Sequence record: PQ349265.1
Direction: 5' to 3' (one strand)
Length of the DNA stretch: 64,000 nt
From: Escherichia phage CJY920
Made by a program: the position numbers and the translations under genes. Of this stretch, positions 2,878 through 56,751 are shown in pieces. Numbering within the stretch: the stretch's first letter is position 1; each line of letters opens with the position of its first letter. The notes beneath the pieces were generated by a model. It had not been told where the DNA came from. It did not search any database and saw nothing but the letters and a program-made list of their open reading frames with translations.

Positions 2878-3424
2878 CGTAATGCTTGAATAAACGCTTA
2901 TACCAAGGCTTCTGTTCTTTTTCAGGCCATGAAGGGAATTCACCACCTAAATGCTCATGCTTTTCTAAAAGAGCAAAGAACCGCTTAAGGTTTTTATAAT
3001 AAAATTTTTCCTTTTTATTGGCGACAGAAGCTTCAATCATATTATTTAAAACTTGGAACTCTTTATATAATTCTTCAATTTTTCTATTACGAATTAAAAC
3101 TCGCTTATATGTTTCGTCTTCTTTCCAACCGTCATCAGTCCATATATCAAATTCGCCGGGCTCATCAAAAGTTATACCAACCGGGCTTCCAATGTCACTT
3201 ATAAAAATTTCTTCTTTATTAAAAGTCCATGCCCGTTTGCCGCGATGGTCTTCTTCATAAATCCAATCTTGAGTACGTTCATCAAATACAACCGCGTATC
3301 CTTCTTTAGGTTCTAAAGGTTTTTTAATTGTTGAATGAGCAGGAAGACCGAGGCCTTTAATCGGTTTGTAATTTTCTTCTTTGTAAAATTCTTTAGTGTC
3401 AAAATAATAATGATATATTTTCAT
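2873..3424 (-). CDS. 38: gp38 tail-fibre assembly chaperone (183 aa)
   Basis: 183 aa, directly after gene 37; preceded by the characteristic SD-hairpin-AUG split RBS. Confidence 0.85.
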   Translation of the reverse strand: MKIYHYYFDTKEFYKEENYKPIKGLGLPAHSTIKKPLEPKEGYAVVFDERTQDWIYEEDHRGKRAWTFNKEEIFISDIGSPVGITFDEPGEFDIWTDDGWKEDETYKRVLIRNRKIEELYKEFQVLNNMIEASVANKKEKFYYKNLKRFFALLEKHEHLGGEFPSWPEKEQKPWYKRLFKHYV

Positions 3425-3454
3425 ATTTAGAAGGGGCCGAAGCCCCTCTCCTTA
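3425..3454 (-). promoter_or_regulatory. split ribosome-binding site of gene 38 (SD - UUCG hairpin - AUG)
   Basis: Minus-strand mRNA UAAGGAGAG-GGGCUUCGGCCCC-UUCUAAAU-AUG; the gene 37 stop UAA overlaps the SD. Confidence 0.75.
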
Positions 3455-16068: not shown

Positions 16069-16112
16069 TTATCAAGGGGCTATCAAGCCCCTATTAAAAT
16101 GAGGAAAACGCA

Positions 16113-22063: not shown

Positions 22064-23656
22064 ATGTGGTTAACTAAGAATAACGCTATGTTTGATAATA
22101 TATACAAAAACGGAAAGTTTCTTCCATTTGGAGAAGAAAAACTTAAATCTAGACTAACAGAAGAAGATAAAGCTCTTCTAACTGATGGAATAGATTTTAA
22201 GCTCAATGTGTTCCAAATTATGGAAGGCATTGACATTAACGATCTAAAATGTGCAGTTTGTGGAAATTTCATTTCTCTGAAAACAGCAAAGAAACGTGTA
22301 TTTCCAGCAACATGTAGTAAATCCTGCTCAGGGATATTTTTCGCGGATAAGAGAATTCAAAGCCGTGATACAAATTTTGGCGGAAAAGAAAAATATAAAA
22401 AATATTTGTCTGAACTTCAACACAAAAATTCTTTAGAAAAATATGGAACAACTCATCAAAAAATTTCAAGAAATAAAAATAGAAAAACTTTAATTGAACG
22501 ATATGGGGTAACGCATAATTCACAATTAGAAAGTGTGAAAGAAGCGAGAAAAGTTATAGAAAACGGTAAATCAGTTGATATTCTGAATTCTAAAAAATCT
22601 CGCGAAAAATCTAAGAAGACTAAATTAAATTGGACTGAAGAATATAAGGCATCGTTATATTCATCTATAGGAAAATCTATTAAAAATAACGGTCATATTA
22701 ATCATGATATACTAGATAAAATCAATTACAAAATTTCTATAGAAGAACTACAACAATTAGCAAATTGTTCTCGGATGACGGCTTATAGAGCTCTTTCATC
22801 CAAAGGACTAATTGACGTTCATTATACTCAAAGTTCTATAGAGCAATTCATTTTAGATCTAGGATTTGATTGCGTAGAAACTAGAAAAATTATTCCTCCG
22901 TATGAATTAGATATTTACATTCCTGAGAAAAAATTGGCTATAGAATACGATGGAATTTATTGGCATTCTAGCGGGTCAAAGGAAACAGATAAAATTAAAG
23001 AAACTTATCATTTGATGAAGACAGAGATGTGTGAAGCACAAGGAATTCAATTACTTCACATCTTCGAAAATGAATGGATTGATGATACAAAAAGAGAGAT
23101 CTGGAAATCCATTATAAAGCATAAATTAGGATTATCAGAAAGAATACCAGCCCGAAAATGCAAAGCACGGTTTGTTAATAAGGATGAGGCAAAAGAATTT
23201 ATTAATAAGAATCATCTTCAAGGATTTTGCTCAGGAGCTCATACGTATAAAGGACTTTATTACAATAATGAGTTAGTTCAAATTATTTCTATCGGTAAAT
23301 CTAGATATAGCTCAGGTGATGAACTTTTAAGGATGTGTTCAAAATTAGGGGTTTGTGTTGTAGGAGGAGCCTCAAAATTATTAAAAGGAATTAATTGTCT
23401 ATCTTATGGCAATCGAAGATGGTGCAGTACATTATCAAATGTTTATGACTCTGTCATGGAATTTAGTCATATCTCTGAGCCATGTTATTGGTACGTCGAT
23501 AAAGGAGAGGTATTTCACCGCTCAAGCTATATGAAACATAAGCTTAAAAACAAGCTTAAAAATTATGATGATACAATAACTGAAGTAGAAAATTGTTATG
23601 CAAATGGTCTTAGAAGAATCTGGGACTGTGGAAATTTAGTTTACAGGACAAAATAA
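22064..23656 (+). CDS. putative free-standing homing endonuclease (530 aa): zinc-finger-like N-terminus, tandem YG-TH repeats, Vsr/DUF559-like nuclease core
   Basis: Cys cluster CAVCGNF...CSKSCSG; repeats EKYGTTHQKIS / ERYGVTHNSQ; core PYELDIYIPEKKLAIEYDGIYWHS...GIQLLHIFENEW resembles DUF559/Vsr-type PD-(D/E)xK nucleases; sits at the nrdA-nrdB position where T4 has mobE. Confidence 0.55.
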   Translation: MWLTKNNAMFDNIYKNGKFLPFGEEKLKSRLTEEDKALLTDGIDFKLNVFQIMEGIDINDLKCAVCGNFISLKTAKKRVFPATCSKSCSGIFFADKRIQSRDTNFGGKEKYKKYLSELQHKNSLEKYGTTHQKISRNKNRKTLIERYGVTHNSQLESVKEARKVIENGKSVDILNSKKSREKSKKTKLNWTEEYKASLYSSIGKSIKNNGHINHDILDKINYKISIEELQQLANCSRMTAYRALSSKGLIDVHYTQSSIEQFILDLGFDCVETRKIIPPYELDIYIPEKKLAIEYDGIYWHSSGSKETDKIKETYHLMKTEMCEAQGIQLLHIFENEWIDDTKREIWKSIIKHKLGLSERIPARKCKARFVNKDEAKEFINKNHLQGFCSGAHTYKGLYYNNELVQIISIGKSRYSSGDELLRMCSKLGVCVVGGASKLLKGINCLSYGNRRWCSTLSNVYDSVMEFSHISEPCYWYVDKGEVFHRSSYMKHKLKNKLKNYDDTITEVENCYANGLRRIWDCGNLVYRTK

Positions 23657-24331
23657 TGAGTACAGTTTTTAATACTAAACAGGTCGATGTTTTAAAAGAA
23701 CCTATGTTTTTTGGTTCAGGTCTTGGTATTGCGCGTTATGATATTCAACGGCATCGAGTATTTGAAGAACTTATTGAACGTTCGCTCTCGTTTTTCTGGC
23801 GTCCGGAAGAAGTAAACTTGATGATGGATGCTGCACAGTTTAATAAGCTTCCTCAGTATCAACAAAATATTTTTACTAATAATCTGAAGTATCAATCATT
23901 ACTTGATAGTATTCAAGGTCGTGCGCCGTCTGCTGTACTTATGCCATTGCTTTCAGACCCAAGCCTTGATACATGGGTTGCTACATGGACTTTTAGTGAA
24001 ACTATTCACAGTCGTTCATATACTCATATCATGCGAAATCTTTATACTGATCCATCGAAGGTATTTGATGAGATTGTACTAGATGAAGCTATCATGAAAC
24101 GTGCTGAATCTATCGGTCGCTATTATGATGATGTTCTGACTAAAACCCGTGAATGGGAAAATGCTAAAGAATTTACAGAACTAGCTAAAGAATCTCCTGA
24201 TGCTGTTTTTCGTTTAAATCGAGCTATTAAACAAGAAGCCGAAGCTAAACGTGCTTTAATGAAATCTCTTTACCTCTGTTTGCATGTTATCAACGCATTG
24301 GAAGCTATTCGTTTTTATGTATCTTTCGCGT
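23656..24331 (+). CDS. nrdB: ribonucleotide reductase small subunit, exon 1
   Basis: ...NALEAIRFYVSFA then T of a split Cys codon; R2 signature as in E. coli NrdB. Confidence 0.85.
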
Positions 24332-24640
24332 AAAATGCGCCTTTAAGCAGTAATGCTTATCGAAAACTCCTTTAATTGCTGGAAAATCCAGAAATGGAAA
24401 ACTAGCAGCCAAGGTTTTGCTTGCACCTTTAATTAGTATCATATTATAAATATGATTATACTTTTAAGAGGATGCACAATTGCAAAGCAAGGTTCAACGA
24501 CTAGTCTTCGGACGTAGGGTCAAGCGACTCGAAATGGGGAGAATCCCTCTGGGATTGTGATATAGTCTGGTCTGCATAGTAATATGTAGCAGTTCATAAG
24601 AGAACGGGTTGAGAATTAGCGAGCTCAATCGAACATAACG
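24332..24640 (+). ncRNA. group I self-splicing intron in nrdB, ORF-less (about 309 nt; boundaries within a few nt)
   Basis: Core GTAGGGTCAAGCGACTCGAAA and GATATAGTCTGGTCTGCAT paralogous to the td intron core; ends ...GAACATAACG; no ORF inside. Confidence 0.7.
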
Positions 24641-25143
24641 GTACCTTTAACTTCCATAAGAACATGGAAATCATGGAAGGTAATGCCAAGATTATGAAGT
24701 TCATTGCTCGTGATGAACAGCTTCACCTTAAGGGTACCCAATATATTATTCGTCAACTTCAATCCGGTACTGATGGTGATGAATGGGTTAAAATTGCTCA
24801 AGAGTGTGAACAAGAAGCAGTTGATATTTTCATGGAAGTTAACCGTCAAGAAAAAGACTGGGCAGTTCATTTATTTAAAGATGGTGATGTTCCTGGATTA
24901 AATACAAATAGCATGTGGAGCTTTATTGATTACTTAACTGTATCTCGTATGAAACAGTGTGGTCTTCCATGCCCAATTACCGATGCTCCGGTTAAACATC
25001 CATATCCTTGGATTCGTGAATACCTTAATTCTGATAATGTTCAATCCGCGCCACAAGAAGTAGAACTATCATCTTACCTTGTAGCACAGATTGATAATGA
25101 TGTTGATGATAAAGTTATGATGAGTTTTAAAAAATATTTTTAA
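24641..25143 (+). CDS. nrdB: ribonucleotide reductase small subunit, exon 2
   Basis: Splice restores [36 protein letters not shown]..., homologous to E. coli [24 protein letters not shown]... Confidence 0.85.
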
Positions 25144-25170
25144 GGAGTGGGCCGCAAGGCCCATTTTATT

Positions 25171-25173
<3 letters not shown>
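25141..25173 (+). promoter_or_regulatory. SD (AGGAG) - GNRA hairpin - AUG arrangement at denA (split RBS and/or nrdB terminator)
   Basis: AGGAG 25143-47, hairpin TGGGCC-GCAA-GGCCCA 25148-63, TTTTATT, ATG 25171. Confidence 0.5.
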
Positions 25174-26758
<1,585 letters not shown>

Positions 26759-33205: not shown

Positions 33206-33210
33206 GTTGA

Positions 33211-33236
33211 GGACTCCTTCGGGAGTCCTTTTTTAT
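33211..33236 (+). terminator. intrinsic terminator
   Basis: GGACTCC-TTCG-GGAGTCC hairpin followed by TTTTTTATTTT. Confidence 0.75.
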
Positions 33237-47466: not shown

Positions 47467-48093
47467 ATGTATGAATACAAATTTGATGTGAGAGTTGGTT
47501 CTAAAATAATCAACTGTCGCGCATTTACTCTTAAAGAATATCTAGAACTTATTACTGCTAAAAAGAACGGTTCAGTAGAAGAGATCGTTAAAAAGCTAAT
47601 TAAAGACTGTACAAATGCAAAAGATTTAAACCGCCAAGAATCAGAACTACTGCTGATTCATTTATGGGCGCATTCTCTTGGAGAAGTTAATCACGAAAAC
47701 TCCTGGAAGTGCACCTGTGGAACTGAAATATCAACCCATATAAATCTATTACATACACAAATAGATGCACCAGAAGACCTCTGGTATACACTGGGTGACA
47801 TTAAAATTAAGTTCCATTACCCTAAAATTTTTGATGATAAAAACATAGCCCACATGATAGTATCATGCATAGAAACGATTCATGCTAACGGGGAAAGCAT
47901 TCCAGTTGAAGACTTAAATGAAAAGGAACTAGAAGATTTATATTCTATCATCACAGAGTCAGATATTGTAGCTATAAAAGATATGCTTTTAAAACCTACC
48001 GTTTATTTGGCTGTTCCAATTAAGTGTCCAGAGTGTGGAAAAACCCATGCTCACGTAATAAGAGGCCTCAAAGAGTTCTTTGAGTTACTATAA
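47467..48093 (+). CDS. 26: gp26 baseplate hub subunit (208 aa)
   Basis: 208 aa, T4 order. Confidence 0.8.
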
Positions 48094-48095
48094 TG
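48060..48095 (+). promoter_or_regulatory. split ribosome-binding site of gene 25 (SD - hairpin - AUG)
   Basis: AAGAGG 48060-65, hairpin CTCAAAG-AGTT-CTTTGAG 48067-84, ATG 48093. Confidence 0.7.
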
Positions 48096-55989: not shown

Positions 55990-56088
55990 TGTATTTTCCT
56001 TGTTGAAATATAATACTATTTATAAAGTTATTTACAAGACCAAAGTAATATGATATTATATTCATATACAAATGGAGTGGTGTTTAAA

Positions 56089-56751
56089 ATGAAATATTTA
56101 ATATATCAAATTACTAATATCATCAATGGAAAAATTTACATCGGAGCTCATGCTACTCTTGACGAAAACGATGGTTATATGGGTTCTGGCGTAAACATCA
56201 AAAAATCCATCAAAAAATATGGTATTCATAACTTTAAAAAAGAAATTCTTTATTCTTTCTCCTCATCTGAGGAGATGTATAAAATGGAAGCTTTACTAGT
56301 CAATGAGGAATTCGTTATGAGAACTGATACTTATAATGCTGCTATTGGTGGTAGAGGAAATCCAGTTATAGTTCATTTGCAAGATCCTTCATATCGTAAT
56401 ATGTTATCAATGCGAACAAAAGAAGGAATGACTGCGGAAGTTAAACGAAAAATATCAAAGGCAAAAACAGGCGTTAAGCAATCTGATGAAACTATCGCGA
56501 AGCGAGTTAAAGGGCGCAATGAATATTATAAAACACATGTTCATCCACGAAAAAATAAACCTATATCGATTTCACATCGTAAAGCTATTTCTGAAAAACT
56601 TAGCGGTATTAAAAAATTTATTCCAATATGTATAAAGGGTGTCAAATTTGATAATCCTGATTACGCAGCGGAGCATTTTAAAGTTAGTCCTAAAACTATT
56701 CGCAATTGGATAAATGCGGATGATATGCCTGATTGCTATCGTATAAAATAG
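56089..56751 (+). CDS. segD: SegD-like GIY-YIG homing endonuclease (220 aa)
   Basis: From ATG 56089: MKYLIYQITNIINGKIYIGAH...; sits between genes 24 and 23, antisense to the late genes. Confidence 0.75.
   Translation: MKYLIYQITNIINGKIYIGAHATLDENDGYMGSGVNIKKSIKKYGIHNFKKEILYSFSSSEEMYKMEALLVNEEFVMRTDTYNAAIGGRGNPVIVHLQDPSYRNMLSMRTKEGMTAEVKRKISKAKTGVKQSDETIAKRVKGRNEYYKTHVHPRKNKPISISHRKAISEKLSGIKKFIPICIKGVKFDNPDYAAEHFKVSPKTIRNWINADDMPDCYRIK

Follow-up and report, generated by a model that had tools for sequence, protein, structure and literature searches.

A conserved hairpin between nrdB and denA of T4-like phages: a candidate split ribosome-binding site built on a possible nrdB terminator

The DNA analysed, referred to here as the window, is a stretch of 64,000 nucleotides from Escherichia phage CJY920 (PQ349265.1). 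It is a T4-type (Tequatrovirus) segment in which the region around the nrdB–denA junction shares 97-99% identity with many T4-like phages; the junction in the T4 record is the same to the letter. The nrdB ORF (24664..25143, plus strand, as are all features of the junction) ends with the stop codon TAA at 25141..25143, the last two bases of which are the first two of the Shine-Dalgarno (SD) sequence AAGGAG of denA at 25142..25147. The SD is followed by the hairpin TGGGCC-GCAA-GGCCCA at 25148..25163, composed of six Watson-Crick pairs (five G-C and one U-A) and a GNRA tetraloop with a core free energy of -11.6 kcal/mol, by the U-rich linker TTTTATT at 25164..25170, and by the denA ATG at 25171..25173. 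The linker is at once the spacer between the SD and the AUG and the U-tract of the putative terminator. The denA ORF (25171..25581) encodes endonuclease II (EndoII), a GIY-YIG protein of 136 aa with a Pfam GIY-YIG match and a known structure (PDB 2WSH). The gap between the nrdB stop and the denA ATG is 27 nt, and no more than 4 nt separate the stop codon from the hairpin stem. A preliminary description of the DNA had proposed for denA the layout AGGAG, 6-bp GNRA hairpin, TTTTATT and ATG, with the SD 23 nt from the start; every element was located at the coordinates given there, and 23 nt separate the last G of AAGGAG from the A of the ATG.

Folding of a 61-nt region with RNAfold gave -16.4 kcal/mol (z = -3.49), a value that none of 200 shuffled sequences matched, and the six core pairs of the hairpin had a pair probability of ~1.0 in three sequence contexts. 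The minimum-energy fold lengthens the stem by GGAG:UUUU wobble pairs worth about -4.8 kcal/mol in both the minimum-energy and partition function calculations, with the result that the SD is predicted to be partly paired. The unpaired probability of the SD was 0.01-0.37 in the T4 type by partition function, and the SD of gene 38 was more open. The hairpin itself is as the preliminary description had it; the predicted partial pairing of the SD with UUUU had been overlooked. A long-range fold of the AUG region with nrdB codons was set aside, having a minimum-energy structure frequency of 0.0095 and a pairing that ribosomes on nrdB would disrupt. The sole overlapping Rfam match, L20_leader, was ascribed to chance, the score of 24.2 bits being below the gathering score of 58.7 (E = 0.07).

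In order to examine the junction in relatives, nrdB-denA junctions were gathered from IMG/VR and GenBank, yielding 25-27 distinct variants, of which 23 were used for covariation, from phages of Tequatrovirus, Mosigvirus, Dhakavirus, Karamvirus, Jiaodavirus, Moon-like, Serratia PS2/Muldoon, Proteus PM2-like and other groups. The order of elements was constant over the 25-27 variants: an SD-like AAGGA(G) overlapping the stop, 0-3 nt, a tetraloop hairpin of 5-7 bp, a linker of 6-10 nt and the ATG. The distance from stop to ATG ranged from 24 to 32 nt and was mostly 26-28 nt, and the SD-like core touched the nrdB stop codon in all listed variants. The loop was UUCG in most variants, with GCAA or GUAA confined to the T4 group. 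In a loop-anchored alignment of the 23 distinct junctions, 90.7% of the cells were paired and double changes occurred in five of the seven pairs, as illustrated by one position with GC in 16, CG in five and AU in two sequences. The observed covariation score was reached by none of 500 shuffles, and slid controls scored far lower. RNAalifold returned the same 6-bp consensus with compensatory changes in four of the six pairs. This pattern of substitutions indicates that the hairpin is real and under selection. The linker kept its length of 6-10 nt in 25 variants while its sequence differed widely. For the window junction, the duplex with the anti-SD was calculated as -8.7 kcal/mol at AAGGAG versus a best value of -3.0 within 4-12 nt of the ATG; in none of the 25 variants was there an SD at the canonical spacing of 4-12 nt (best -3.7 kcal/mol there), and the only good complement to the anti-SD sat 17-24 nt upstream of the ATG.

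Two relatives, Yersinia phage fHe-Yen9-01 and Pseudomonas phage PspYZU05, are without the hairpin and the SD, and in them the nrdB stop overlaps the denA start (ATGA and TAATG, respectively), from which it follows that the split ribosome-binding site is dispensable. Similarity of the fHe-Yen9-01 sequence (L086/L028) to its relative phiR1-RT sets in only at the denA start; the 3' end of nrdB in fHe-Yen9-01 has a T4-like appearance (…SFKKYL) and is joined to denA as ATGA, which suggests that the hairpin was lost by a recombination event. Distant denA-like loci on contigs from IMG/VR that measure 37.5-152 kb, ~151 kb in two cases (L042-L046; for example L042, 1462-1866), were uninformative as junction evidence, having another gene context and a frame broken by stops. 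In these loci the denA-like gene (about 42% identity) adjoins an rnlA homologue, and the frame contains five in-frame stops, yet the motifs VYIGKTK and KPKWNIQH are kept; the two stops within the stretch inspected are TAG. The pattern suggests either reassignment of a stop codon in this lineage or a pseudogene.

Ribosome-binding sites bridged by a hairpin are experimentally established for T4 genes 38 and 25, the only two named in a review of the subject (Uzan & Miller 2010, PMC3014915). Both strands of the whole window were scanned for an SD, at most 3 nt, a hairpin, 4-11 nt and a start codon opening an ORF of 50 aa or more. Four starts matched, those of denA, gene 38 and gene 25 and one internal ATG regarded as a false positive, versus 0.7 expected when the 45 nt upstream of 616 candidate starts were shuffled; with hairpins of -9 kcal/mol or lower, two starts were observed versus 0.03 expected. 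The scan thus recovered both of the genes that the preliminary description had named as precedents. At the gene 37 stop/gene 38 start (3422..3454, minus strand; scan and PMC3014915) the sequence is TAAGGAG-AGGGGC-TTCG-GCCCCT-TCTAAAT-ATG, and gene 38 begins at ATG 3424 on the minus strand and encodes 183 aa. The gene 25 site (48060..48095, plus strand; scan and PMC3014915) consists of AAGAGG, C, the hairpin CTCAAAG-AGTT-CTTTGAG, TTACTATA and ATG; gene 25 starts at ATG 48093 and encodes 132 aa, and the gene 26 stop overlaps this ATG.

The resemblance of denA to gene 38 is close. Both have TAAGGAG overlapping the upstream stop, a GC-rich tetraloop hairpin of 16 nt and 6 bp and a 7-nt linker, with the ATG 27 nt past the stop, and neither has a canonically spaced SD. 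The two differ in the loop, which is GCAA at denA and UUCG at gene 38, and in the linker, which is terminator-like at denA (UUUUAUU, d = +39.8 in the terminator score described below), in contrast to gene 38 (UCUAAAU, d = +1.1). They differ further in the predicted partial pairing of the denA SD with the U-tract and in that the denA site is a candidate, the gene 38 site an established one. The 'accommodated' site between genes 26 and 25 (Nivinskas 1999; Malys & Nivinskas 2009, both as given in the review PMC3014915) likewise lies at an intercistronic junction, is conserved among relatives, and has an intervening hairpin that brings a distant SD near the AUG. It differs from denA in that its hairpin is AU-rich (-6.4 kcal/mol) and within the coding sequence of gene 26, the stop of which overlaps the ATG, and in being reported in close T-evens only, whereas the denA layout spans many genera of the Tevenvirinae.

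Several properties expected of a split site are found together at denA. The SD is more than 15 nt upstream (23 nt), with none at canonical spacing in the window or the 25 variants, and the hairpin lies wholly between the SD and AUG so that its removal takes out 16 nt and leaves 7 nt, within the effective spacing of about 5-11 nt expected of such sites. The hairpin is retained by compensatory changes in relatives, and the ATG downstream of it, conserved in 27 of 27 junction variants and matching the beginning of the crystallised endonuclease II (PDB 2WSH starts at MKEIA), appears to be the true start. Coupling through an overlapping stop and start is absent from the window junction with its 27-nt gap and is a feature of the hairpin-less relatives only. 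The suggestion that denA has a split site is supported by the gene 38 geometry, the covarying hairpin, the constant linker length and the lack of a canonical SD. Most likely, as judged from these features, the denA junction is a third member of the known T4 class of split sites and involves no new mechanism; an earlier mention in the older T4 literature is possible. Toeprint, reporter or 3'-end mapping data on the denA junction were not found in the searchable literature, including T4 Term-seq, cappable-seq and ribosome profiling.

The junction also has the sequence features of an intrinsic terminator, a GC-rich stem-loop directly followed by the U-tract UUUUAUU. When scored with a d'Aubenton-Carafa-style discriminant d and tail score T, the hairpin gave T = 4.77 and d = +39.8, a rank within the first three among some 15 strong tetraloop hairpins of the window. 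A standard terminator scan of the window did not report the junction hairpin, a miss probably caused by the G-T extension of the stem consuming the T-run, not by absence of the motif. The mean U fraction of the linker was 0.64 over the variants versus 0.28 in the 7 nt that precede the ATG in 42 genes of the window with an ordinary SD; judged by this comparison, the U-richness of the linker is itself conserved, with the exception of Serratia phages PS2 and Muldoon. The window junction has only a short U-tract (U4 A U2), in PS2 and Muldoon the tract is lost (GTAAAGCT / ATAAAGCT), and d was negative in six of 25 junction variants. A terminator is annotated at the junction in 7 of 60 sampled GenBank records. 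The two strongest classical terminator-like hairpins of the window are at 33210-33229 (plus strand, d = +47.9) and 56775-56756 (minus strand, d = +37.2), both 8-bp UUCG stems followed by T5-rich tails.

Comparison of loci in which only one of the two genes is present indicates to which of them the hairpin belongs. In five Aeromonas phage loci (L094, L096, L097, L100 and L109) nrdB has no adjacent denA, and a UUCG terminator lies within a few nt of the nrdB stop. A TTGACA-type promoter-like element follows this terminator in the first four loci; L109 has none in the sequence shown. The Aeromonas terminators (Ah1, Aeh1-like, PX29-like and 65-like loci) resemble the denA junction in the placement of a hairpin, with UUCG loop, a few nt past the nrdB stop; they differ in having longer stems (8-10 bp) and long T-runs, and in that the next gene is neither denA nor abutted to the hairpin. 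Conversely, the SD-hairpin-AUG layout is not found at denA of Krischvirus, Tulanevirus, Cinqassovirus, Ishigurovirus, Slopekvirus or Pseudotevenvirus, in which nrdB is not adjacent. The denA of Phi1 (Krischvirus) has a hairpin and then a canonical SD (GAGGAAAGGA) 4 nt from the ATG, and the denA genes of avDM3, Ah1, avDM6, KLB1 and leE have overlaps or ordinary sites. Since the hairpin is present after nrdB without denA, and the SD-hairpin-AUG layout is absent at denA without nrdB, the hairpin goes with the 3' end of nrdB. The distribution among these loci points to the bridged SD as an accommodation of the denA start to the hairpin at the nrdB 3' end.

A different arrangement was observed in a 183-kb T4-like contig (L095, 1154-1192), where nrdB is followed by the hairpin GGGAGC-CTCGT-GCTCCC and TTTTCTTTT running into the ATG of a different gene. 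The 5' arm of this hairpin is the SD-like AAGGGAG, and the locus may be another overlap of terminator and ribosome-binding site with a different design.

Only 7 nt lie between the hairpin and the denA ATG, a space into which no promoter fits; nrdB and denA must therefore be co-transcribed, and any terminator at the junction must be leaky. A promoter of denA downstream of the hairpin, which the preliminary description had named as evidence against its proposal, is thus physically impossible. A time course of the T4 transcriptome and proteome (Viruses 2022;14:2502) placed the nrdA, nrdB.1, nrdB and rnlA RNAs in the 'early' class and denA RNA in the 'middle' class, the classes being derived from clustering, and detected EndoII protein, from which it follows that read-through and translation of denA occur. 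In the same RNA-seq data (Viruses 2022;14:2502), mobE RNA is likewise 'middle' among 'early' neighbours. The T4 mobE gene has a leaky intrinsic terminator with 30-50% termination and mapped 3' ends (Wilson & Edgell 2009, PMC2790892), which tunes a downstream nuclease gene that has no promoter of its own. The mobE terminator belongs to the same nrd cluster, is also a hairpin with a short U-tract, and is associated with a 'middle' RNA as is denA; it differs from the denA junction in lying 27 nt inside the coding region, in having no role in ribosome binding and in its mapped 3' ends. A leaky terminator before denA would produce the observed RNA classes, which constitute indirect evidence. A pattern match identified a middle-promoter-like (MotA-box-like) element for rnlA at 25582..25607 on the plus strand, consisting of TGCTTCCA, 12 nt and TACTAT, directly past the denA stop, the rnlA ATG (25634) following about 27 nt further on. 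If active, this element would explain why rnlA RNA is 'early' and denA RNA 'middle'.

The results favor, with a probability slightly above one half (about 0.55), a single dual-purpose structure in which a leaky nrdB terminator or 3' stabiliser has the ribosome site of denA built around its hairpin. A terminator or dual role had been raised in the preliminary description, and this reading gains support from the d value of +39.8, the U-rich linker across genera, the tie of the hairpin to the nrdB 3' end and the T4 RNA classes. In the nascent RNA the GC-rich GCAA hairpin and UUUUAUU would act as a leaky intrinsic terminator, and the hairpin may alternatively or additionally be a barrier to 3'-exonucleases. 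denA would then be present on no more than a fraction of the transcripts, most of which would end, or be stabilised, at the 3' end of nrdB; low expression of denA makes sense because the gene encodes a toxic nicking enzyme. Of the 23 nt that separate AAGGAG from AUG in the read-through RNA, 16 would be folded into the hairpin, for an effective spacing of ~7 nt, and by analogy with genes 38 and 25 the 30S subunit would bind the SD and AUG together with the hairpin looped out. The helicase site of the ribosome is located roughly at +11 to +13 from the first P-site nucleotide. From this geometry a ribosome stopping at the nrdB UAA would cover the SD and unwind most of the stem, in which case nrdB termination and denA initiation would alternate and re-initiation would be possible. 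The modelled pairing of the SD with UUUU could lower rather than raise denA initiation, and a ribosome closely following the polymerase would hinder termination, the stop codon being only 4 nt from the stem.

The alternative in which the hairpin is a terminator or 3' stabiliser and nothing more, with denA produced at a low level by termination-reinitiation from nrdB and the SD-hairpin-AUG geometry irrelevant, is considered unlikely. It accounts for the hairpin-less lineages, where denA is coupled directly to the nrdB stop with no SD, and for the phages in which the hairpin follows nrdB without an adjacent denA, and the terminator scores and pipeline annotations agree with it. It leaves unexplained why every listed variant keeps an SD-like sequence directly upstream of the stem and why the linker stays at 6-10 nt despite turnover of its sequence; moreover, no variant puts the SD after the hairpin, an arrangement seen with other hairpins of the window (for example at 16075 and 49712).

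The converse, that the hairpin solely bridges the SD and AUG, with no termination or 3' ends and with a U-rich linker that is an unstructured, S1-friendly spacer, is judged distinctly improbable. The identity of its geometry with that of gene 38, the linker of which is not U-rich (d = 1.1), is in its favor, as are the retention of hairpin and spacing in PS2 and Muldoon without the U-tract and the nearness of the stop codon to the stem, which disfavors termination under coupled translation. However, placing a canonical SD 7 nt before the ATG would be the simpler solution, and denA homologues elsewhere use a canonical SD or overlaps and never a bridged site. The U enrichment is also unusual for T4 spacers, true terminators follow nrdB in the Aeromonas phages, and the RNA class of denA differs from that of nrdB.

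A more elaborate version of the dual-purpose reading is a ribosome-gated switch, which is put forward as a speculative and rather improbable model. A ribosome close behind the polymerase would occlude the 5' arm of the hairpin while the polymerase is at the U-tract and so suppress termination, and the hairpin would later refold into the ribosome-binding site of denA. If this were true, denA would be transcribed only from actively translated nrdB mRNA, and one 16-nt hairpin would couple nrdB translation to both transcription and translation of a toxic nuclease gene across the Tevenvirinae.

It is very improbable that the structure is repressive, an extended 10-bp helix (GGAGUGGGCC / GGCCCAUUUU) sequestering the SD and keeping toxic EndoII low in the manner of the hairpins of T4 gene e and I-TevI. 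The calculated GGAG:UUUU pairing would allow it in T4, and UAAGG can pair with CUUUA in several other genera. Yet the extension consists in T4 almost wholly of G-U pairs and is not conserved, many genera lacking it (L013, L015, L021, L030-34, L036). The AUG is free, and the SD/anti-SD duplex, at a predicted -8.7 kcal/mol, outweighs the extension. A RegB cleavage site at the GGAG beside the stem is kept as a minor possibility only, the GGAG not being conserved (mostly AAGGA followed by A, U or C) and having no A-rich 3' context.

Finally, the hairpin would be merely coding sequence if denA began at GTG 25147, eight codons upstream and encoding 144 aa, as annotated in the T4 RefSeq (NC_000866.4, 137951); the Dhakavirus phage vB_EcoM_FB likewise has a longer denA ORF annotated from an in-frame upstream start inside the hairpin, and no further stop codon interrupts the frame after the nrdB stop in the T4 type, but such a start is almost certainly wrong: an in-frame upstream start exists in only 4 of the 27 variants, the junctions measure 24-32 nt and do not keep to multiples of three, the peptides added by the extension in different variants are unrelated, the GTG directly touches the SD with zero spacing, and the crystallised protein begins at MKEIA. 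On this comparative evidence the true start of denA is ATG 25171 (136 aa), and the T4 RefSeq start is corrected thereby. Annotation pipelines label the junction inconsistently, as a terminator, a ribosome-binding site inside the hairpin or coding sequence. An 'AGG' in the loop and 3' arm of the hairpin, the ribosome-binding site in the annotation of phage Ge15, was rejected; it exists in the GCAA-loop variants only and not in the UUCG variants.

If the dual-purpose reading is correct, it offers a simple account of how EndoII, a toxic enzyme that nicks DNA, is kept low beside abundant NrdB. A third bridged site at denA would differ from those of genes 38 and 25 in covarying over many genera and in being placed on a terminator-like element. 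It would further suggest that split sites arise when the start of a gene packs against an existing 3'-end hairpin, a general explanation of such sites.

Other features of the window were recorded. A perfect 7-bp hairpin, TCTCCTC-ATCT-GAGGAGA, at 56258-56275 (plus strand) contains the SD-like GAGGAGA 8 nt before an internal in-frame ATG, and is located inside an ORF for a GIY-YIG (Seg-like) homing endonuclease (56050-56751).

The gap between nrdA and nrdB, where T4 has mobE and nrdB.1, is filled by an ORF of 530 aa (22064-23656, plus strand) that has no DNA similarity to T4 in the gap and whose stop overlaps the nrdB ATG. The only Pfam match of this ORF was a weak, sub-threshold one to REase_MTES_1575 (residues 258-346); it is presumably akin to the homing endonuclease of Hef type that reportedly takes the place of mobE in some T-evens. 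The group I intron of nrdB (24313-24589, plus strand; Rfam RF00028, 71.7 bits) lacks about 287 nt relative to that of T4. The T4 segment with the defective I-TevIII ORF (record 138622-138908) is absent from it, for which reason the intron of the window is ORF-less, and the late-promoter motif TATAAATA remains at 24445. A sharp mosaic boundary lies at the intron (23655-24482 versus 24476-25700), with identity to T4 of only 85.9% for nrdB exon 1 and of 97.7% for exon 2, denA and the start of rnlA.
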